A stretch of DNA of 64,000 nucleotides from an uncultured delta proteobacterium (GTDB lineage: Bacteria > Myxococcota_A > UBA9160 > SZUA-336): positions 480,001-544,000 of the forward strand of contig CAVPHD010000004.1 in NCBI GenBank assembly GCA_963704165.1. The letters are read 5' to 3'. Position 1 is the first letter of the stretch, and each line of letters begins with the position of its first letter. The translations under genes were made by a program, and so were the position numbers. Below, one piece after another: positions 35,926-49,162 of the stretch. The notes beneath the pieces are model-generated. The model was not told where the DNA came from and ran no database searches. It worked only from the letters and a program-made list of their open reading frames with translations.

Positions 35926-37488
35926 ATGGCATCGGCGGCCGCGGACTCCTTGCCGGACGAACGGTCGCTTCACGTCTCGCGCGGTACGGGAGCGGCGTGC
36001 GTTCTGGCGCTCATCCTCGCCGTGACGCTCGAGGCGTCCGCACAGGGCGGAGGAGAACGCATCGCGCTGAAGCTGCGCGATGGAAGCCAGGCATCGCTCG
36101 AACGCGGTCAGCTCGTCGCGCGGGGGGCCGATCTGACCGAGCTGCACCGAGTACTGGCGGAGTTCGACCTCCGTCCGGGCGCGTTGTCCCCCACCTTCGT
36201 GCGAAGTCCGGCGGCTCTGCGAGCCGAGCACGCGCTCGCCGAGCGCAGGGGCGGACGCCGGCTCGGTGAGCTCGCGCTCTTCTTCAACCTCGAAGTCGCG
36301 CCGGGAACCGACGTGGCCGCATTCGTCGCCGCGCTCCGCGCGCTCCCCGAGGTCGAGAGCGCCGACCCCTGGCCGAAGCCCGCACCACCGCCGTTCGACC
36401 TCGATCCACCCACGCCCGACTACTCCGCGCTGCAGACGTTCAAGGCGGCTGCGCCCGTCGGCATCGGCGCCGCCGGCTTCGTCGGAATCACGGGCGCGGA
36501 CGGCTACGGGACACGCTTCGTCGATGTCGAGTACGAGTGGCGCCTCGACCACGAGGATCTCGAGCTTGCCGCGAGTACGGTGGTCCCGGTTGGAACCGCG
36601 GTGAATCCGTTTCCCGACGACGGCAGTCACGGAAATGCGGTGCTCGGCCTGTTGTCCGCGCGCGCGAACGGGTACGGCGTCACCGGGCTCGTGCCGGCGT
36701 CGCAGGTCCGTGTCGCCGCCGCGCAGACGGCGGAGCACGGCTGGGACGTCGGGCGCGCGATCGAGCAGGCGATCGTGGCCTTCGGCCCGACCGTGGGCCC
36801 CGGTGACCTGATCCTGATCGAGCAGCAGATGTACGTCTGCGGTTTCGATGGCTCCGGCGGGGGCCAGACGGGCGCGGGTCCAGTCGAGGGATATCCGGCC
36901 TGGCGTGCCGCGATCGCGACCGCCACGGCGCTCGGTGTCATCGTCGTCGAGGCGGCGGGCAACGGCGGTGTCGATCTCGACGCGCCGAGCTGCAACGGCG
37001 TCTTCGATCGCGGGCTCGGAGATACCGGTGCGATCGTGGTCGGTGCGGGATCGGCTTCGTCGCGCGCGCCGCTCGCCTATGCGTCCTACGGCAGCCGCGT
37101 CGACGTTCAGGGAGTCGCGGAGGGCATCGTGACGCTCGGCGGGGGCTCGCTCTTCGGCGGCGGCGACCCGTTGCAGAAGTATCAGTCGAACTTCGGGGGC
37201 TCTTCGTCCGCCGCTGCGATCGTGGCCGGCGTCGCGCTCGCGGTGCAAGGCCTGCGACGGGCGGGCGGCCACGCGCCGCTCGACCCGTTCGCACTTCGCG
37301 ACCTGCTCGTGCAGACCGGCACGCCGCAGGCGCCCGATCCGCGTCAGATCGGGCCGCTGCCGGATCTCGGTCAGGCCTACGCCATCGGTGTACCGGCGCT
37401 GTTGATCCGGACGCTGCCCTACTGGGCGGCGCTCGCGCTGTGTGGGCTGCTGCTCGCCGCCGTCGCGATCCGGATGCGCGCGCGCTAG
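35926..37488 (+). CDS. Secreted S8 subtilase with C-terminal membrane anchor
   Basis: Signal peptide, FVDVE (Asp), SHGNAV (His), AAGNG, FGGSSSA (Ser); C-terminal IRTLPYW-TM-RMRAR. Confidence 0.85.
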   Translation: MASAAADSLPDERSLHVSRGTGAACVLALILAVTLEASAQGGGERIALKLRDGSQASLERGQLVARGADLTELHRVLAEFDLRPGALSPTFVRSPAALRAEHALAERRGGRRLGELALFFNLEVAPGTDVAAFVAALRALPEVESADPWPKPAPPPFDLDPPTPDYSALQTFKAAAPVGIGAAGFVGITGADGYGTRFVDVEYEWRLDHEDLELAASTVVPVGTAVNPFPDDGSHGNAVLGLLSARANGYGVTGLVPASQVRVAAAQTAEHGWDVGRAIEQAIVAFGPTVGPGDLILIEQQMYVCGFDGSGGGQTGAGPVEGYPAWRAAIATATALGVIVVEAAGNGGVDLDAPSCNGVFDRGLGDTGAIVVGAGSASSRAPLAYASYGSRVDVQGVAEGIVTLGGGSLFGGGDPLQKYQSNFGGSSSAAAIVAGVALAVQGLRRAGGHAPLDPFALRDLLVQTGTPQAPDPRQIGPLPDLGQAYAIGVPALLIRTLPYWAALALCGLLLAAVAIRMRAR

Positions 37489-38036
37489 AGGGAGCGCTCG
37501 CGCGGACGATCCACGGTCGCGAGTCGGGCCTCGAAGCTCTCGAGCGCGGTCGCGAGCCGTTCGAGGTTCTTGTTCAGCGCCTCGAGGTCGCCGCGCGTCG
37601 GCAGATCGGCCACGTGCAGCACGTGCTCGACCGCGGCGTGGACCGTTCGCGTGATCTCGGACGGGTCGAACGGTGCGCCGTCGCCAGGAGTACGAATCCA
37701 GCGTCGCATGTTGTCGCGCATCTCGTTCAGGTTGGTCTCGACGTCCCCTACACCGCGCCGCACCAGGCTGTAGAGGGCGTCTCCACCGCGTTGGATCAGC
37801 TCGGTGAGAAGCGTGCCGGAGACTGCAGAGTCGCGGTCTCCGCGATTCCCCCGCTGATCATCCACCAGGATCTGCGACAGCACGATCGGCGTGATCTCCT
37901 CGCCGGTCTCGTTGTCGATCACGCAGATGTCGTGACCCTCGCGCACGAGCTCGGAGATCCCTTTCAACGTGATGTACCGGCTCGACTCCGTGTTGTAGAG
38001 CTTCCGGTTCGCGTAGCGCTTGATCAGGATCGCCAT
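37485..38036 (-). CDS. PhaR-type PHA synthesis regulator DNA-binding domain with phasin-like C-terminus
   Basis: IKRYANRKLYNTESSRYITL and IDNETGEEIT; C-terminal DLPTRGDLEALNKNLERL. Confidence 0.88.
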   Translation of the reverse strand: MAILIKRYANRKLYNTESSRYITLKGISELVREGHDICVIDNETGEEITPIVLSQILVDDQRGNRGDRDSAVSGTLLTELIQRGGDALYSLVRRGVGDVETNLNEMRDNMRRWIRTPGDGAPFDPSEITRTVHAAVEHVLHVADLPTRGDLEALNKNLERLATALESFEARLATVDRPRERSL

Positions 38037-38341
38037 CGGTCGCGAGTATCCCACCGCACCTTGGGTCGGTCAAACCCTTCGCGCTCGCGCTTCCGTCGCG
38101 TGTGGACGCTCGGCGCGATCGCATCGGAGAGCGCGGCGAAGATCTCGCGCACGCGCTCGGCGGCCGGATCGTGGGCGGCGCGCTCCGCCCAGCGCTTCTC
38201 TTCCGCGCGAAGTGCGGCGCGCACGCGCTCGAGGGAAGGCGCGCTTCCGCCGAGCACGCTGGCCCCGGAAGCGAGCGCGAGAGCGAGCTCTTGCGCGGAG
38301 CGCACGAGATGCTCGAGCGCGCGTTGACCGGGGTCAGGCAT
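38024..38341 (-). CDS. Hypothetical helical protein
   Basis: 105-aa ORF overlapping the ArsA stop and the PhaR start on the same strand. Confidence 0.65.
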   Translation of the reverse strand: MPDPGQRALEHLVRSAQELALALASGASVLGGSAPSLERVRAALRAEEKRWAERAAHDPAAERVREIFAALSDAIAPSVHTRRKREREGFDRPKVRWDTRDRWRS

Positions 38342-39512
38342 CGGCCTTCGGCGCGAAGATCAGACTCCCGATGCGCGCGAGCGCCTCGAGCTCGTGAACG
38401 TCCTCGCTGAAGAGCGGCACCACGCGCACGGCATCGGCCTCGAGCGGCAGTGCCTTCTCGAGCCGTGCCCGCACCGCGAGGTCGCGACGCGCGAGCGCGG
38501 CCTGCGCCCGCGTCGACGCGACCAACGCGCGCGCGCTGCTCGCGGAGTCGAGTTCGGGCGCGGCCGCGTCGATCGCGCCCGTCAGCCACGAGATCGCGCG
38601 CTCCACTTCCTGAACGTCGTCGGCGGGAGGATCGCCGGCGCCGGGCCAGGTGTGCACGCGATTCAAGACCAGTCCGGCGAGCTGGATCCCTTCCTCTTGC
38701 AGACGCCGCCAGAAGGATTCCGCGCTCTTCGCCTGTTGGAGATCGGGCCCCGCCACCAGCACGAAGCCGCAGATCGGGTCGCGAAGCAGACCGGCGACCT
38801 CGCGCGCGCGCTCGGAGAAGCCGCCGAGCATCTCCTCGAAGGCGAGCAGGAACTCGGAGATCGACGTCAGGAACTCGAGTCCGGTGATCCGCTCGAGACC
38901 GCGCATCATCAGCTCCGACCCGGAGCGGAAGAGGCGAAAGCTGGCCCGTCCGACGACCGCGGCGGGGTGGAGGAGCACCGTCAGGAACTGGCTCTCGAGA
39001 AATCCGGCGAGCCGGCGCGGCGCGTCCAGGAAGTCGAGCGCGTGGGAGGCGGGGGGCGTGTCGAGCACGATCAGATCGTACTCCCCGTCGGCGTGGATCT
39101 GGCGCAGCTTTTCCATCGCCGAGTACTCGCGGCTCCCGCCGAGCGCGTCGGTCAGGTTTCGATAGATCGGATTCGAGTAGATCCGCGCGCGCGCGTCCGG
39201 ATCGGAGGCGAAGCGCTCGACGAGCTCGTCGAACGTGCGCTTGGTGTCGAGCATGAGTGCGGCGAGCTTGCCGTCGCCCGTCACACCCGCTTCGCGCAGT
39301 CGGTCGCGCGGAACCTCGCGGGGAACGTGGTCGAGCGCGCCGGTTCCCAGCGCGTCCGCGAGCCGTCGCGCGGGATCGATCGTCATCACGAGCACGGACT
39401 TCCCGGCGCGCGCGCCGGCGAGGCCCAGCGCTGCGGCGATGGTGGTCTTGCCGACGCCTCCGGTGCCGACGGTGACGAGAACGCGACAGTCGAGCCAGCG
39501 TTCGGGTTTCAC
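38334..39512 (-). CDS. ArsA/Get3-family ATPase (single domain)
   Basis: GTGGVGKTT, TIDPARRLADALG and LDTPP. Confidence 0.92.
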   Translation of the reverse strand: MKPERWLDCRVLVTVGTGGVGKTTIAAALGLAGARAGKSVLVMTIDPARRLADALGTGALDHVPREVPRDRLREAGVTGDGKLAALMLDTKRTFDELVERFASDPDARARIYSNPIYRNLTDALGGSREYSAMEKLRQIHADGEYDLIVLDTPPASHALDFLDAPRRLAGFLESQFLTVLLHPAAVVGRASFRLFRSGSELMMRGLERITGLEFLTSISEFLLAFEEMLGGFSERAREVAGLLRDPICGFVLVAGPDLQQAKSAESFWRRLQEEGIQLAGLVLNRVHTWPGAGDPPADDVQEVERAISWLTGAIDAAAPELDSASSARALVASTRAQAALARRDLAVRARLEKALPLEADAVRVVPLFSEDVHELEALARIGSLIFAPKADA

Positions 39513-40510
39513 TTCGAGACCTCGGCTCGCGACTGCGCGAGCGCCGCTCCGAGATGATCGGCGAGCGCGGCGACGCCGGATGGACCATCCACGCCCTGAT
39601 CGAGCCAGGGCAGAACGACCGGAGCGACGCCGAACTCGCCTTCGAGTCGGGCGAGGAACCCCGCCTGCATGCGCGTGCGAGAGAGCCGATGTCGCACGGA
39701 GGCACAGAGCGCGACGGGCTCCACGAGCGGAGACGGGGCGCTCGCGGCGTCGAGGGACGCGACGACCTCCAGCACGCGCTCGGCGTCGGGCAGCGCGAGC
39801 GGGGGCTCGACTCCGTTCGCGATCACCGGACCGAGCGCGAGCCCGAGCTCGCGAATCCGCGCGCGCAGCTCGAGCGTCTCGTTCACCGGTAGCTCCTCGA
39901 GCAGGCTGACGATCAGGACCGCCGTTCGAGCGGGGTCCGTGAGCAGCGCTTGAACCAGATCGGTGTTCCGGCGAAGCGGGCCGATCCGCACGGTGTCGAG
40001 GATCACCGTCGGGGTCGAGAGCAGGGAGAGCCCATGGCCGGTCGCGGGTGCGTCGATCACGATCAGCGGCCAGAGCGCTGATCCCTTCGAATCCTCGAGC
40101 GAGACCAGGTGCCAGAGCTTTCCCAGCGTGATCAGCTCGCGCCAGCCGGGCGCCGCCTCGAGAAAGCGTTGGAAGCCCGCGTTCCCGACGATCGCCCGCG
40201 CCAGGGCGCGCACGCGGATCTGCAGCTCCAGGTATTCGAGCAGGGCCTCCTCGGGAAGGATCCGAAGCGTGAACAGATTGGGCGCAGCCCGGACCGGATC
40301 GCGCCGCGGGTTCGCACTTGCGAGAGGCCGGTTCTCGCAGAGCAGATCCGGCAGCACCGACGTGTGGCCGAGCTCGACGACGAGCGTTTTGACGCCGGCG
40401 TCCGAGGCGAGTCGGCCGAGCGCCGCGGCGACGCTCGTCTTGCCGGTGCCACCCTTGCCGGTGACGAGCAAGAGGCGCCGCGCGAGCAGTTGCTTCGTCA
40501 GTTCCGACAT
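39509..40510 (-). CDS. ArsA/Get3-family ATPase (single domain)
   Basis: TGKGGTGKTS, AAPGWRE, IDAPATGH and EELPVNET. Confidence 0.92.
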   Translation of the reverse strand: MSELTKQLLARRLLLVTGKGGTGKTSVAAALGRLASDAGVKTLVVELGHTSVLPDLLCENRPLASANPRRDPVRAAPNLFTLRILPEEALLEYLELQIRVRALARAIVGNAGFQRFLEAAPGWRELITLGKLWHLVSLEDSKGSALWPLIVIDAPATGHGLSLLSTPTVILDTVRIGPLRRNTDLVQALLTDPARTAVLIVSLLEELPVNETLELRARIRELGLALGPVIANGVEPPLALPDAERVLEVVASLDAASAPSPLVEPVALCASVRHRLSRTRMQAGFLARLEGEFGVAPVVLPWLDQGVDGPSGVAALADHLGAALAQSRAEVSK

Positions 40511-43629: not shown

Positions 43630-44436
43630 ATCGCGCGCCGGGGTTTCCTCGCCGGGCCGGACGTCCTCCGGCGCGGCTTCGCATTGCTGCGCGGCGAACC
43701 TTCGCTCTGGCCCTGGGCCGCGCTTCCCCTCTTGTTGAACCTGACGGCGTTCGGGCTGGCGATCTGGGCGTTCGTCGCGAACCTCGACGGGATCGCGGCG
43801 CCGCTCGAGCGCGCGCTCGACCCCGGCGAGCCGGCGGAAGTCTGGGGTTGGATCTGGGCCGGGCCGCTGCTCGTGCTCGCGTTCCTGGCGCGATGGTTTC
43901 TGCTCGCGGTGCTCGGCGTCGCGATCTACTTCCTGTTCACGGTTCTCGGCGGCGTCGTCGCGGCCCCATTTCTCGACGTGCTCTCCGAACGGGTCGAGCA
44001 GATCGTGACGGGTGCGTCTCCGCGCGCGGACTCCACGCTCGCGGATTTCGTTCGCGGCGCGCTCCGCAGCATCGTCGAGGAGGGCAAGCGCGCGGCGTTC
44101 TTCCTGTCGGTGCAGCTCGGGATCCTGCTCTTCGGCCTGATTCCCGGTGTTCAGCCGATCGCCGCTCTCGCGAGTCTCGGCTTCACGTCGCTCTTCCTGC
44201 CACTGGATTACACCGCCTACGCGTTGGATCGGCGCCGAGTCCCGTTCCGGCTGCGGAGGCGATGGATCTTCGGTCACGCGCCCGAGATGCTCGGCTTCGG
44301 TGGTTTCGGAGTCGTGCTCTTCTTCGTGCCCGGCCTCTCGTTCCTCTGCCTGCCGTGGCTCGTGACCTCGGGCACGTTGCTCGCGCTCGACCTCGGCCCG
44401 CCGGACGGGCGAACGGCCGTCACGCCGGGCGAGTGA
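43630..44436 (+). CDS. EI24/CysZ-family membrane protein (start uncertain)
   Basis: AAPFLDVLSERVE, LIPG and LDY motifs, several TMs; the open frame extends upstream of the TTG at 43684 to an ATC at 43630. Confidence 0.85.
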   Translation: MARRGFLAGPDVLRRGFALLRGEPSLWPWAALPLLLNLTAFGLAIWAFVANLDGIAAPLERALDPGEPAEVWGWIWAGPLLVLAFLARWFLLAVLGVAIYFLFTVLGGVVAAPFLDVLSERVEQIVTGASPRADSTLADFVRGALRSIVEEGKRAAFFLSVQLGILLFGLIPGVQPIAALASLGFTSLFLPLDYTAYALDRRRVPFRLRRRWIFGHAPEMLGFGGFGVVLFFVPGLSFLCLPWLVTSGTLLALDLGPPDGRTAVTPGE

Positions 44437-44989
44437 CGCGGTCGGCGATCTTCCGGAACCAGATCGCCTTTGGATTCGCGCTGGCTTCGAACTCGAGCCG
44501 GGCGACCCCGTTCGGGGCCGCGGCGAAGGCGCGTGCGAGCTTGGCGCCCAGACCGACACCGACGAATGTCACCCGCGTCTCGTCGAGCGCCGGGTCGGTG
44601 GCGACGAGCCCGAGCAGTTGCGCGAGGTCGGCCGCGACCTGCGCTTCGATCTCCGGTCGGAGCCGCTTGGCGAGCGCGGTCGTCGTGCCGAGCGCGAGCG
44701 CCGAGAGCTTGTCGCTCTTGCGCGCACCACAGAGCGGCAGGTCGAACGTCACGAGCGCCGCGTGCGCGCACCAGGCCGAAGCGGCGCTTTCGACGAAGGC
44801 GGAGCTCGCGCAGCCATCGGGTCCGGCGAGCAGGATCACCGGGTGGGGACCGCGGCCCGTCGGTCGAACGGTGCACCCGTGCACGCGGTCGCCCCGCGAG
44901 AGCAGACTCCACGCCGTCCTCGCGCCGTCGCGGCGCAGCGCGAGCCCGGGAACGCCCGCGATCGACTTCGACTCGGTCGAGCGGCGCAT
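44420..44989 (-). CDS. Short alpha/beta-hydrolase-like protein lacking the nucleophile Ser
   Basis: GPHPVILLAG, FDLPLCGAR and LDETRVTFVGVGLG (GxSxG replaced by GVGLG). Confidence 0.6.
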   Translation of the reverse strand: MRRSTESKSIAGVPGLALRRDGARTAWSLLSRGDRVHGCTVRPTGRGPHPVILLAGPDGCASSAFVESAASAWCAHAALVTFDLPLCGARKSDKLSALALGTTTALAKRLRPEIEAQVAADLAQLLGLVATDPALDETRVTFVGVGLGAKLARAFAAAPNGVARLEFEASANPKAIWFRKIADRVTRPA

Positions 44990-45726
44990 CAGGCGGCGAG
45001 CCGCTGGCCGAGCCGCTGACAGAGCGCTCGCAGATCCCGGGCCGTCGCGCTCCCGGCTTCGAGCGCGTGCAGCGATTCGCCCCGGAGCAGCAGGCGATAG
45101 CTCGCGGCGTCGCGGGTGAGCCCGCCGAGGAGCTCGATCTCGACCCCGTACTGGCGGCGCGACGCCGCGGCGAGTCGCCCGATCAGCTCCGCAGCAGCCG
45201 CCGGTGAATCGGAGCCGACGACCAGAGCGAGTACGCGCCGGTTCGTGAGCGCCGGAGCGTACTCGCGCAGGAATCCGAGCGTCTTGCCGAGACCCCAGGG
45301 CGCGAGCTCGACCGGAAGCAGCACCGCGTCGAGGCCGTCGGTGGGGATCCGGCCGAGCATCGCCCCAAGCCGTGCCGGACTCTCGATCGCGATCGCCGGC
45401 ACGTCGTCTGGAACCGCGGCGAGCGCTTCGGCCGGATCCTCGCTGATCTGCCACACGACGCCGGGGACGCGCGGCAGCAGGGGAGACGCAGGGAACGAGC
45501 TGATGACGCACGCGCCGTGGGCCTCGGCGATCATGCCGCCGGCGAGCTCGAGCGCGAGCGAACAGGTCAGGGGCCGATCGGGATCCGCGGGCAGGCCGTA
45601 ACGGGCCGCGCGCGACGCCGAAGCCGAACGGGGGCGCTCGCGTGCATCTGCCGCCTCGCGAGCCTCTCTCTGCTCCTCCTCGGAGATGAAGTAATGAAGG
45701 ACGTCTCCGAGGTTCCTGCGCGCCAA
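44989..45726 (-). CDS. Degenerate MinD/FlhG-like protein without a P-loop
   Basis: C-terminal half RLAAASRRQYGVEIELLGGLTRD...SATARDLRALCQRL resembles FlhG/MinD C-termini; no KGGxGK; TTG start at 45726. Confidence 0.55.
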   Translation of the reverse strand: MARRNLGDVLHYFISEEEQREAREAADARERPRSASASRAARYGLPADPDRPLTCSLALELAGGMIAEAHGACVISSFPASPLLPRVPGVVWQISEDPAEALAAVPDDVPAIAIESPARLGAMLGRIPTDGLDAVLLPVELAPWGLGKTLGFLREYAPALTNRRVLALVVGSDSPAAAAELIGRLAAASRRQYGVEIELLGGLTRDAASYRLLLRGESLHALEAGSATARDLRALCQRLGQRLAA

Positions 45727-45740
45727 AGCCGGCTCTCGTG

Positions 45741-46838
45741 CTAGCTGATGATGAGCACCGAGTTTACCCCGCCCGCGGGGCCTTCGACGCGACGGGGATT
45801 GCTCGGGTCCGGCTGCCATTCACCATCGACGAAGTAGCGGTACTGATACACGCCCGGTCCCAGACGCACGACCTTCTCCCAGGTGCCCTTCGGGCCCAGC
45901 CTCGTCTCGACGCCCTGGTCGGGGATCCAGTTGTTGAAGTCGCCCGCGAGCTGGACCTCGCGCACGTTCGGGTTCTTGAACGTGAAGACCACGCCCTTGG
46001 CGGAGGCCGACGCGACCTCGATCGGATCGGGCTGCGGAGCCTTGGGTTTGGCGGGCAGCTGCTCCTCTTCGCGGTCGTACAGGACTTCGAGAGCGAGCGA
46101 CATGTAGTCGACGAATCCGTACGAGCGGCGGTCGAGCTTCGCGATCGGAATCCCGCGCTGCGCCGCTTCGCGCAGGCGCACGTTCGAGCGGATCACCGTG
46201 TCGAAGACGAGGTCCTTGTAGGTCTCGCGGATCTCCGCCAGCGCTCGCTTCGCGAATCGCGTGCGGCCGTCGAAGAGCGTCGGCAGGATGCGGATCTTCA
46301 GCGAGTGGCCGATCCGATCCTCGAGCAGGCCGATCGTCTCGAGCAGCTTGCTCACGCCGTGCATCGAGAAGTAGCTCGTCTCGAGCGGGATGATGACTTC
46401 CTGCGCGGCGCGCAGCGCGTTGAACGTCAGGATCCCGACGTTGGGCGGGCAGTCGATCAGGATGAAGTCGTACTGCTTCTCGAGCTTCGCGATCGCCGCG
46501 GCGAGTCGCTCCGTGCGACCCCTCGCTCCCTCGGCGCCGAGCTTCTGCTCGAGCGCGGAGAGGATCACGCCGGACGGAGCGACGTCGAGGTTCTGCGAGG
46601 CGTTGGTGATCACCTCGTCGAGCTTCGCACCGGCGCCATCCGGTTCCGCCAGCACTTCGTAGAGGTTCTCGTCGACTTCTTCGGGATCGATGCCGAGGCC
46701 GAGCGTGGCGTGCGCCTGCGGATCCATGTCGACCACGAGCACCGCATGACCCTCGGCGGCGAGACATCCCGCGAGACTCACGACGGAGGTGGTCTTGCCG
46801 CAACCACCTTTCTGATTCATGACCGCGATGCAGCGCAT
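45741..46838 (-). CDS. ParA/Soj-family ATPase fused to a C-terminal CBM48/AMPK-beta-type glycogen-binding domain
   Basis: NQKGGCGKTT, DMDPQAHAT, IDCPP, TLFDGRT and IRSNVRLREA; then VVFTF...VQLAGDFNNW...GTWEKVVRLGPGVYQYRYFVDGEWQPDP...NSV. Confidence 0.93.
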   Translation of the reverse strand: MRCIAVMNQKGGCGKTTSVVSLAGCLAAEGHAVLVVDMDPQAHATLGLGIDPEEVDENLYEVLAEPDGAGAKLDEVITNASQNLDVAPSGVILSALEQKLGAEGARGRTERLAAAIAKLEKQYDFILIDCPPNVGILTFNALRAAQEVIIPLETSYFSMHGVSKLLETIGLLEDRIGHSLKIRILPTLFDGRTRFAKRALAEIRETYKDLVFDTVIRSNVRLREAAQRGIPIAKLDRRSYGFVDYMSLALEVLYDREEEQLPAKPKAPQPDPIEVASASAKGVVFTFKNPNVREVQLAGDFNNWIPDQGVETRLGPKGTWEKVVRLGPGVYQYRYFVDGEWQPDPSNPRRVEGPAGGVNSVLIIS

Positions 46839-47040
46839 GCCTGTCCCTCCCCTTTACGAGACAGAGATCCGAACGGGGGCGTGCAACGGCAAGCGAATGA
46901 GCGACAACGGAAGGGGCGGCCTAGCATCCCGCGGATCACGCGTGGATGCTCCGCTCGATTCCGACGAGGCAGATCGCAAGATCTCCCTCAACTCTCCACC
47001 CCCATTCGAACCGAACGAAACGTAGCAGCAGGAGAATCCG

Positions 47041-48000
47041 ATGGCCAACTCCGGACAGCCACACCGGACGAGAATCGGGGTGCTCGACCTGGGCTCGAAC
47101 ACCGTCTTGCTGCTCGTAGCCGATGCCGAGGGCAACGTGATCCGCGACACCGCGCGAATCACGCGTCTCGGCCAGGGAGTCTTCACGAGTTCGGCGCTCG
47201 CGCCCGACGCGATCTCGCGCACACGTGCAGCGATCGCGGAGCTATCAGCGCTGGCTCGCGCGGACGGCGTCGAACGCCTGATCGCCGTCGGCACCGAGGC
47301 GCTTCGCTGCGCACGCGACGGCGCAGACTTCCTTGCGGGGCTGGTGAGCGATGGTGTCGTGGATGCTGCGAGCGTTCTCTCCGGTGAGCAGGAAGCCGAG
47401 GTCGCCGTCGAGGCGACGCGGCAGCGGATCGGCGCGCGGGCCGAATCGCTGGCCGTGATCGACGTGGGCGGTGGCAGTACGGAGATCGCCTGGCGCGCGC
47501 GCGCGGATTCGCCGATCGAGGGGGTCTCGCTACCGCTCGGGAGCGTGCGCCTGACCGAGGCGATGCTGCCGCGTCATCCGGTTCCGGAGTCCGATCTCGA
47601 TCTCGTCCGCGCCGAGGTACGGCGCGCGACGGAGCCGCTCGCACGCGCTCTGCCGAGCGGCCTGCCCGTGGGCGCGGCCGTGGTCGCGGTCGCGGGTACC
47701 GCAACCACGCTCGCCGCGCTCGATCTCGGGCTCGAGCCCTATGACGAAGCGCGGATCGAGGGACTCGAGCTCGACGCGGAGACGCTCGCCACGTGGATCG
47801 AGCGGTTGGCACGGCTCGGTGTCGCCGAGCGCAAGCGACTTCCGGGTCTCGAGGCCGGGCGTGCGGACGTCATCGTCGCCGGCCTGCTCGCGCTCGCCGG
47901 CGTTCTCGAGCGACTTCGCGCGCGGCGCTTTGCGGTGTCGGGCCGGGGTGTACGGCACGGCGTCGCGCTCCGCGTGCTCGCTGGCGAGATGGTCATTTGA
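47041..48000 (+). CDS. Ppx/GppA exopolyphosphatase family
   Basis: LDLGSNT, ITRLGQG, IDVGGGSTE, LGSVRLTE, AGTATT and RADVIVAG. Confidence 0.93.
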   Translation: MANSGQPHRTRIGVLDLGSNTVLLLVADAEGNVIRDTARITRLGQGVFTSSALAPDAISRTRAAIAELSALARADGVERLIAVGTEALRCARDGADFLAGLVSDGVVDAASVLSGEQEAEVAVEATRQRIGARAESLAVIDVGGGSTEIAWRARADSPIEGVSLPLGSVRLTEAMLPRHPVPESDLDLVRAEVRRATEPLARALPSGLPVGAAVVAVAGTATTLAALDLGLEPYDEARIEGLELDAETLATWIERLARLGVAERKRLPGLEAGRADVIVAGLLALAGVLERLRARRFAVSGRGVRHGVALRVLAGEMVI

Positions 48001-48016
48001 TAACGTCCATCGGTCT

Positions 48017-49162
48017 GTGGAACAGACCATCCTCGTCGTCGTCGGTCCGGACGGGCCGCGTCCGTTCATGCGCGGGATCCTGGTGCAATCGCTCGTCTCA
48101 CGCGGCGTGCCATTCGATGTCGCGCTGGAGACCGCGACCGCGATTCGCGACCGCATCGCGGCCAAGCAACAGGTACTCGTCGCCGAGCTCTCGAGCCTCG
48201 TCGACGAGTTGCTCGACGATCGATACGACCTCGACGCGCCCGTCATTGCCGCCATCGCCGAGCCTCCGCGCGTGCTCGAGGAGACGGGATCCGGCAGCCC
48301 GTTCTCGAAGGGGATCCTCGCGGTCTCCCTGATGGGCGCGGGGCTCGAGCCGGATGTCGCGCAGGACGCGGCGCGCGAGATCGAGGCGCGACTTCTTCGC
48401 CAGGGTGTGGCGAACATCGACCGCACGAAGCTCCGCGACCTGGTCGCCGAAACGCTCGAGCGCACGCACGGGGAAGGCCCCGCGAGCCGCTACCGGATCT
48501 GGCGCGCCGCGCGCGACGACGGAAAGCCGAGTCTGGTGCTCCTCGGAGGCGCCACGGGCACGGGCAAGACGTCGATCGCGATCGAGGTCGCGCGACGGCT
48601 CGAGATTCCGCGCGTGATCGGCACCGACTCGATACGTCAGATCATGCGCCTGATGTTCTCTCCGGACCTGATGCCGGAAATCCACTCCTCGACCTTCGAT
48701 GCGCACATCGGAATGCCGCACACGGTCGCGCCCACCGGCGAGCCCGTCGTCGTCGGATTCCGCGAACAGGCACAGAAGATCGCGGTTGGCGTGCACGCGC
48801 TCTTCGATCGAGCCGTCGAGGAGAACACGAGCATGCTGATCGAGGGTGCGAATCTGGTTCCCGGCATGCTCGATCTCGCCCGCTATCGCGAACGCGCCCA
48901 CGTTTCGTTCATCATGACCGGAACGCTCGATCGCGAGGCCTATCGCAGCCGGTTCACTTCTCGCGCTGCCAAGGCGCGCGGCCGTTCGGCCGATCGGTAC
49001 CTGGAGCACTTCGAAGACATCTTGATGATCCAGAACTACCTGCTCGCCGAGGCGGAGCGCCACGAGTTGCCGATCATCGACAATCGGCACTTCGACACCG
49101 CCGTCGTCGCGGTGATCCGATCCGTGATCGCGACCCTGCCGGCCTTGCGACCACAGGCGTAG
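48017..49162 (+). CDS. 2-phosphoglycerate kinase-like P-loop kinase with two ATP-cone-like repeats
   Basis: PFMRGILVQSL and PFSKGILAVSL repeats; GGATGTGKTS, IGTDSIRQIMR, HSSTF and IEG..LVP. Confidence 0.8.
   Translation: MEQTILVVVGPDGPRPFMRGILVQSLVSRGVPFDVALETATAIRDRIAAKQQVLVAELSSLVDELLDDRYDLDAPVIAAIAEPPRVLEETGSGSPFSKGILAVSLMGAGLEPDVAQDAAREIEARLLRQGVANIDRTKLRDLVAETLERTHGEGPASRYRIWRAARDDGKPSLVLLGGATGTGKTSIAIEVARRLEIPRVIGTDSIRQIMRLMFSPDLMPEIHSSTFDAHIGMPHTVAPTGEPVVVGFREQAQKIAVGVHALFDRAVEENTSMLIEGANLVPGMLDLARYRERAHVSFIMTGTLDREAYRSRFTSRAAKARGRSADRYLEHFEDILMIQNYLLAEAERHELPIIDNRHFDTAVVAVIRSVIATLPALRPQA

Follow-up and report, generated by a model that had tools for sequence, protein, structure and literature searches.

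A ParA-type ATPase fused to an AMPK-type carbohydrate-binding module in an uncultured delta proteobacterium: a conserved candidate positioning system whose ligand in this host may not be glycogen

What does a ParA-type ATPase do with a sugar-binding domain at its end? The question is raised by a gene at 45741..46838 (minus strand) of the window, the whole stretch of 64,000 nucleotides that we analyzed from an uncultured delta proteobacterium (GCA_963704165.1, contig CAVPHD010000004.1, positions 480,001 to 544,000). The initial annotation described the product as an orphan ParA fused to a glycogen-binding domain, with the cargo adaptor thus built into the ATPase, and proposed that it could position glycogen granules. 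The fusion is borne out, and it proves to be a core gene of the host class with a conserved partner gene directly behind it. The reading that we favor, tentatively and at somewhat less than an even chance, is that fusion and partner form a housekeeping, nucleoid-based ParA positioning module, triggered by the partner, whose ancestral ligand was an alpha-glucan and whose ligand in this host is a different one.

The gene encodes 365 amino acids and its open reading frame is preceded, by 7 nt, by a GGAGG ribosome-binding site (46850-46846). The N-terminal part (aa 1-258; 46065..46838, minus strand) is a Soj/ParA ATPase domain, with a Pfam AAA_31 match of 177.6 bits at aa 1-182, and the C-terminal part (aa 281-365; 45744..45998, minus strand) an AMPK-beta-type carbohydrate-binding module (CBM) of family CBM48, with an AMPK1_CBM match of 41.6 bits at aa 283-362 (cut-off 26.8) and a CBM_48 match likewise above its cut-off. 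Between them lies a flexible linker of proline and charged residues (aa 259-280; 45999..46064, minus strand), whose length in the family ranges from 0 to 353 aa. In the AlphaFold model (mean predicted local distance difference test score, pLDDT, 92) the two domains stand apart, and confidence in the linker is low at about aa 269-279. The motifs named in the initial annotation are all found in this reading frame, and the profile search that it proposed returned both families, AAA_31 and AMPK1_CBM, above their cut-offs. The fusion is not a matter of chance, since both families are present in all of the best 120 homologues listed and, of the 150 best representatives of clusters at 50% identity, 124 are full ParA plus CBM fusions. 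Close relatives are, by their titles, Myxococcota or Deltaproteobacteria; the commonest phyla among the fusion clusters in the Atlas are Myxococcota, Omnitrophota, Thermodesulfobacteriota and Planctomycetota. Four large proteins (P0129, P0222, P0223 and P0238) carry 6 to 17 tandem AMPK-type CBM repeats without a ParA.

The ATPase has an intact deviant Walker A motif at aa 10-17 (nt 46788-46811), together with D37/D39/Q41 and the Walker B residue D129; N8, K10, K15, D37, D39, Q41 and D129 are invariant in an 80-row alignment, and C13 (95%) and H43 (98%) are marks of the family among the 124 representatives. It thus shows what section 12 of bioRxiv 10.64898/2026.10.19.760177 lists for PriB1 (Soj/ParA): the deviant Walker A with its signature Lys and N-terminal Asn, DxDxQ, and the Walker B Asp. 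The best solved relative by sequence is 8ray (161 bits), and Foldseek places the domain on Soj/ParA structures with a template modeling (TM) score of 0.93-0.95, normalized to the target. MinD and FlhG typically end in a C-terminal amphipathic membrane-targeting helix; the fusion has no MinD-type membrane tail, its C-terminus being the all-beta CBM, and MinD models stay far under their cut-offs. The host genome (G000) has a separate parA-parB pair on another contig, and its only ParB_N match adjoins that parA, as the earlier remark that no parB is adjacent would have it. A quick tree places 20 of 21 unfused ParAs on one branch (Shimodaira-Hasegawa-like approximate likelihood ratio test, 95) that excludes all 32 fusion ATPases, and these may have had a single origin. 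Outside the window, at G000:C1:486970-487848, lies a third, divergent ParA-like gene without a parB, followed by acyltransferase-like and epimerase-like genes (names read from the sequence).

In Helicobacter pylori, Soj contacts DNA via K199, K227, K230 and K247 (PMC11229316), positions that correspond to K197, S218, R221 and R238 of the fusion; the basic residues of its ATPase are R192, K197, R217, R221, R223 and R238. Three of the four contact positions are therefore basic and R217 and R223 are added to them, which makes it likely that the fusion binds the nucleoid; the IRSNVRL segment, which the initial annotation matched to the DNA-binding segments of Soj, carries Ser instead of a basic residue at the K227 position.

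An orphan, the fusion is not. Beginning 15 nt past its stop codon, a gene at 44989..45726 (minus strand) encodes a 245-aa protein that stands directly behind the fusion in 21 of 22 close loci (in the 22nd the contig ends inside the ParA) and adjoins 69 of the 73 fusions found in the host class, for which we used 81 genomes, the host's being 84% complete and those of its relatives at least 88%. The TTG start at 45726 was inferred from the homologues; a longer reading from ATG 45819 (276 aa) was rejected because the homologues begin at the peptide motif described below. The protein has no Pfam match, but its AlphaFold model (pLDDT 90) finds FlhG (4rz2, E 9e-9) and FleN as best Foldseek matches, with a TM score of about 0.6, and profile comparison relates it to the ATPase of the fusion with a probability of 96%. 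Walker A motif and Walker A lysines are both missing, and identity to the FlhG, FleN and MinD ATPases is 11-12%, so that the protein appears to be a pseudo-ATPase.

The body of this partner diverges fast; the best conserved part of its alignment (34% identity) is an N-terminal peptide, R-x-L-x-D-V-x-H-Y-F (45679..45726, minus strand), that resembles the N-terminus of ParB. The pattern by which peptides were selected fixed the Leu and the positions following it and picked up 60 of 72 class loci; at a position that the pattern left free, two residues before the Leu, 57 of the 58 complete class peptides have Arg or Lys. This residue aligns with R9 of H. pylori ParB, the arginine required for ParA binding (PMC11229316). 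Partners in the phylum of genome G081 begin with LGRG[LM] in 7 of 8 cases, and 16 ParB N-termini of this locus set carry LG[RK]GL. We infer that the partner triggers the ATPase of the fusion and, because a dedicated partner carries the ParB-like peptide, that the ATPase probably does not have its cargo adaptor simply built in. The ParA-type positioning logic of the initial annotation is supported, with a partner that it did not foresee.

Is such a module part of the cell's own organization, or is it a weapon? The only published account of the gene set is a computational one that predicts immunity: a preprint describes ParA-CBM (ConB5), a ParA fused to AMPK1_CBM, with both extensions, and in its section 29 proposes, from sporadic distribution and rapid divergence of the CBM and with no experiments in the text concerned, an anti-phage sensor-effector whose CBM would sense infection-linked carbohydrates or polysaccharide depletion and whose ParA multimers would restrict the invader (Li, Burroughs and Aravind, 2026; bioRxiv 10.64898/2026.10.19.760177). 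The earlier statement that no characterized system of this kind is known therefore stands for experiments and falls for computational description. The alternative offered here is a core, cell-organizing ParA with its own activator.

In the host class the inheritance is that of a core gene. The fusion CBM is found in 73 of the 81 genomes, nearly always as a single copy and in every one of the 73 fused to ParA; it adjoins a 2-phosphoglycerate-kinase-like gene in 68 and lies near a phosphomannomutase (pmm) gene in 63. The fusion tree, of 72 genomes, recovers all five multi-member families and all 12 multi-member genera. Of its 27 well-supported splits, 24 are found again in the tree of pmm (60 genomes), against no more than 2 of 57 when labels are random. 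Mean identity, taken over 496 pairs among the 32 genomes that have all five domains, falls from 0.68 in the ATPase through 0.63 in pmm and 0.61 in the CBM to 0.51 in the kinase and 0.36 in the partner; the CBM is more conserved than its kinase neighbor in 91% of these pairs and less conserved than the ATPase in 87%, with a gap of 5-8 points in every set (0.36 against 0.41 across representatives). The ratio of nonsynonymous to synonymous substitution rates (dN/dS), taken from 12 close pairs that are kin and so not independent, is lowest of the five domains in the CBM (0.08), followed by the ATPase (0.10), and is 0.145 in pmm and 0.31 in the partner. The fusion in the host class is a single-copy, vertically inherited core gene at a fixed locus, and its CBM is under strong purifying selection.

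These results bear directly on the immune proposal, which we consider quite improbable. It can draw on a CBM that is somewhat more divergent than the ATPase in both comparisons, on the fast evolution of the partner and of a NucS/restriction endonuclease (REase)-like third protein of many class loci (about 0.36 identity), and on a patchy occurrence of the fusion in one gammaproteobacterial order (16 of 32 genomes). It has to contend with a gene that is near-universal, single-copy and syntenic in the class and present in 90 of 121 genomes of the phylum of genome G084, with a tree that follows taxonomy, and with a CBM about as conserved as pmm. Searches for defense and mobile elements gave nothing specific: PADLOC, run on 16 proteins, returned a match at the level of the Walker A motif for the fusion, one at the level of a helix-turn-helix for MerR and none for the other 14; no full-length fusion match was found among 50,697 phage records; and the CBM-containing C-terminal half had no match among 72,556 plasmids, six plasmid records covering at least 80% of the full fusion protein with the CBM half unmatched.

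If the module belongs to the cell's own organization, what would it hold? The proposal of the initial annotation, in an extended form, is that the CBM tethers the ATPase to glycogen granules and the ParA cycle spaces them, the host system being a relic after recent loss of the glycogen (glg) genes; we regard this as unlikely. In its favor, the CBM aligns to AMPK beta-1 (1z0n, E 2e-9), and W304, R334 and W341 stand where AMPK has W100, K126 and W133, with the G147 and N150 positions also kept; among the 124 representatives, W304 is conserved in 100%, R/K334 in 98% and W341 in 97%. A candidate AMPK-type sugar-binding domain is thus supported. Glycogen binding by AMPK requires W100, K126, W133, L146 and T148, and mutation of L146 or T148 lowers it markedly, L146A blocking it only partly (PMC2642990). 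The last two positions, in a hairpin, are occupied in the host by A355 and G357, which tells against glycogen as the ligand. The three core residues are invariant across the class, in 24 of 24 carriers with markers of glycogen metabolism and 43 of 43 without, but position 353 is never Asn and position 355 is mostly Ala, Thr, Val or Met. In three other lineages, for which the best-scoring loci were compared (sampling 30 of 90 and 12 of 16 carriers in two of them), position 353 is Asn in 8 of 8, 28 of 29 and 12 of 12 sequences and position 355 is Phe, Tyr, Leu or Ile in 49 of 49, so that nearly all have the hairpin N-x-F/Y/L/I-G. Judged by these residues, half of the sugar-binding site is decayed in the host class.

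The gene content of the class points the same way. Full-length GlgA occurs in 15 of the 81 genomes (with weak matches in 8 more), phosphorylase in 25, GlgB/GlgX-type CBM48 in 26, strong GH57 in 7, GlgE in 8 (all already marker-positive) and GH13 in 45, many of these with one alpha-glucosidase-like gene. The fusion is present in 29 of 32 marker-positive and 44 of 49 marker-negative genomes (p=1), five carriers with only a strong GH57 and a weak GT5 match being counted as marker-positive here and excluded from the residue comparison above. More than half of the carriers (44/73) therefore have no GlgA, GlgB/GlgX, GlgE, phosphorylase or strong GH57 match, although their CBM is maintained by purifying selection throughout whole families; 40 of the 44 are at least 90% complete and five are assembled in 1-10 contigs (G010, G011, G039, G059 and G070). 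One family (f5) has the fusion in 25 of 25 genomes and a GT5 match in 1 of 25. Conversely, three genomes (G001, G015 and G019) are glycogen-positive without the fusion.

The host genome itself has no GT5, phosphorylase, GH57 or GlgE match, at 84% completeness, and a single GH13 gene, which by its motif looks like an alpha-glucosidase. Where relatives have a glg cluster of about 12 kb, the flanking genes in the host stand 2.2 kb apart on contig C2, with two unrelated genes and no N between them; an assembly gap as the cause of the missing glg genes at this syntenic site was rejected on these grounds, and glg copies may lie elsewhere in the genome. In the fusion tree the two members of the genus that lack glg genes, the host and G016, are each other's closest relatives, an arrangement consistent with the recent loss that the glycogen proposal supposes. 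For the host, then, the claim of a glycogen-granule system does not hold up: the cluster is absent from its syntenic site, and markerless carriers are the majority of the class. From core-gene inheritance and from retention in genomes without glycogen genes, it follows that the cargo in the host is likely not glycogen.

Other lineages give a different picture. Glycogen synthase (glgA) is present in 89 of 90 carriers in the phylum of G084, in 15 of 16 in the gammaproteobacterial order and in 8 of 8 in the phylum of G081, 112 of 114 in all. The initial annotation had named the occurrence of homologues mainly in genomes without glycogen synthesis as evidence that would sink its proposal; such is the distribution in the host class and not in these three lineages. 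In the phylum of G084 the fusion is found in 1 of 11 glgA-negative and 89 of 110 glgA-positive genomes (p=3e-6, with kin that are not independent and with divergent fusions that could fall below the threshold), and among its genomes of at most 1.6 Mb in 0 of 9 and 17 of 27, respectively. Of 12 listed loci of this phylum, three have a GH57 gene two genes upstream of the fusion and a fourth has one six genes upstream. The near-universal co-occurrence and these GH57 genes speak for glycogen positioning; against this, two of the three outside lineages have glgA almost throughout, which leaves co-occurrence there with little weight, and in the third the genomes without glgA may belong to a single clade. 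Because 112 of 114 outside carriers have glycogen synthase, and those sampled the full site, an ancestral alpha-glucan role is plausible, with an alpha-glucan or glycogen still the likely ligand where glgA and the full hairpin are kept.

The phylum of G084, which has small genomes, commonly has a second layout of the locus, with an upstream single-membrane protein that gives weak CBM-like matches and that in some loci has a GH57 gene ahead of it. In four loci (L123:9227-9781, L124:9559-10116, L126:9624-10199 and L127:9277-9849) this membrane protein has a conserved cytoplasmic N-terminal helix of the type D-I-Y-E-H-L-A-x-I-Y-L, whose spacing is like that of the partner peptide and which may be an alternative trigger for ParA.

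The wider operon suggests yet another function. In the class it comprises merR (39/73) upstream of the fusion, the partner (69/73), a NucS/REase-like gene (41/73), an extracytoplasmic function (ECF) sigma factor gene downstream (51/73) and an alpha/beta-hydrolase-like gene (63/73), counts that are limited by how much sequence was fetched around the locus (roughly 9 kb in 63 genomes and 12-18 kb in ten) and by where contigs stop. The order merR, fusion, partner and third gene recurs in gammaproteobacterial loci, and the gene before the fusion in L023, L069 and L071 encodes a sigma-54-type regulator. A carbohydrate-sensing switch would make use of such neighbors: a ligand on the CBM would alter the ATPase, and the change would be relayed to MerR, the ECF sigma factor, the sigma-54 activator or the cell cycle, with no cargo. 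The CBM of AMPK is an allosteric sensor (PMC2642990), and the folds closest to that of the partner are FlhG and FleN, for which the library of solved structures gives the name transcriptional antiactivator. The host's family (f1), on the other hand, keeps only the fusion, the partner and the hydrolase-like gene, with merR and the ECF sigma factor gene at the locus in 0 of 21 genomes, and no merR homologue of the operon type was found anywhere in the 84% complete host genome. Moreover, gradient-forming systems characteristically have a ParB-like peptide and a DNA-binding patch, and we hold the switch to be improbable. The best match in the host genome (143 bits) to the ECF sigma factor of the operon lies at G000:C4:466044, about 14 kb before the window; this gene may have moved rather than been lost.

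At the host locus, the third gene (44420..44989, minus strand) overlaps the stop of the partner by 1 nt and encodes a shortened alpha/beta-hydrolase-like protein of 189 aa, whose membership in the system is uncertain. The nucleophile Ser of longer relatives (for example L057:6041-6796) is replaced in it by Gly, so that it too may be a dead enzyme. The inactive REase gene is absent from the locus in 21 of 21 genomes of the family and was not found in the host genome; where present, the NucS/REase-like protein (L058:9400-10038, L023:8132-8698, L042:1182-1760) ends in an acidic motif of the type FR..x..L..EE..F, conserved across three phyla despite low overall identity and a candidate docking peptide. 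A scan of 44200-47200 for promoters and terminators yielded a single terminator-like site, as expected by chance, and nothing of the sigma-70 type. In the host family a ppx/gppA gene (47041-48000) occupies the place that merR has in other families, and the gene at 47741-49162 (plus strand), whose 2-phosphoglycerate-kinase-like product has an ATP-cone domain, is placed divergently to the fusion gene in 68 of the 73 carriers of the class. Further off, at 37485-40510 (minus strand), a tandem pair of ArsA/GET3-type ATPase genes is followed by a PhaR-like gene (PHB_acc_N, with weak phasin matches); this block stays near the fusion in many relatives, and it could concern other storage granules.

How might the favored module, a nucleoid-based ParA and its trigger, work? 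By analogy with ParABS and McdAB, ATP-bound dimers of the fusion would coat the nucleoid; the Arg-Leu peptide of the partner would dock on them, leading to hydrolysis and release and so to a ParA gradient. The dead ATPase body of the partner would be the likely cargo or scaffold adaptor, and the CBM arm would bind a second ligand, by which the ATPase is tethered or tuned. In the host class the hairpin would have decayed and the module outlived glycogen metabolism, its CBM likely binding another glucan, a short oligosaccharide or a protein.

Several points weigh against this reading. MerR and the ECF sigma factor fit a regulatory role equally well. The peptide of the class partners resembles LGRGL only in degenerate form, and in the phylum of G084 many fusions lack a partner of this kind and have the upstream membrane protein in its place. 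The K227 equivalent is not conserved across the fusion family, and the kinship of the pairs behind the dN/dS values tempers the argument from selection. Seven of eight genomes of the host's own genus have glgA, so that glycogen could still be the ligand in close relatives. Finally, no cargo was identified: glycogen genes are absent from the host at the syntenic site and do not correlate with the fusion in its class, and carboxysome and chemoreceptor genes were not searched.

A broader claim, doubtful though it has some real chance of being right, is that the ParA-CBM family is not immune at all and is the first dedicated bacterial machine for placing or sharing out alpha-glucan stores, a ParA with a glycogen-binding arm that was re-aimed to a non-glycogen ligand in the host class once glycogen metabolism had been lost; the ParB-like trigger peptide would then be carried either by a FlhG-fold protein that is dead as an ATPase or by an anchor in the membrane. 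Glycogen condensates of E. coli collect at the old pole and skew the positions of nucleoid and division (PMC11042326). Our literature search found no paper on active positioning of glycogen and, on the fusion, only bioRxiv 10.64898/2026.10.19.760177. If the versions from glgA-positive genomes bind glycogen, they would address the open problem of how glycogen is placed. The host, which keeps the system without glycogen genes, serves as a natural control that marks the limit of the glycogen idea and suggests a changed ligand.

Set beside known systems, the locus is closest to ParA-CBM (ConB5), with which it shares a ParA with C-terminal AMPK1_CBM and, as in variant 2, an adjacent inactive, fast-evolving ParA-like gene; the optional inactive REase gene of that variant is missing at the host locus, though 41 of 73 class loci have it. 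The other variant, which places a single-transmembrane CBM protein upstream, is found here in the phylum of G084. Section 29 of the preprint does not mention the ParB-like peptide and its main text has no occurrence of MerR, and the sporadic distribution and fast-diverging CBM on which it builds are not what the host class displays (73 of 81 genomes, a vertical tree, dN/dS 0.08). With Soj/ParA of the Spo0J/ParB systems (8ray; H. pylori 6iub/8jmj; Thermus thermophilus 1wcv/2bek), the fusion shares fold, motifs and 35-39% identity, and the partner, like chromosomal ParB, carries an N-terminal Arg-Leu peptide; in contrast to chromosomal ParABS, it has no ParB domain, no parB is adjacent and the ATPase has an extra CBM. 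The partner shares its fold with FlhG, FleN and MinD, from which it differs in the missing Walker A lysines and the added ParB-like peptide. The CBM is like that of AMPK beta (1z0n) at the W100, K126 (here Arg), W133, G147 and N150 positions and unlike it in the Ala and Gly at L146 and T148 and in its setting, a P-loop ATPase fusion rather than a kinase complex. McdA/McdB, which position carboxysomes (PMC8684754), and PpfA and ParC (summarized in PMC9178275) offer the nearest likeness in logic: a ParA outside parAB with a dedicated partner, here predicted to stimulate hydrolysis and to link the cargo. McdA differs in sequence (56 bits, as against 161 for ParA), in the fold of its partner and in the built-in CBM of the fusion, whose operon moreover contains no gene for a cargo; the module may work like McdAB without being a member of that family.

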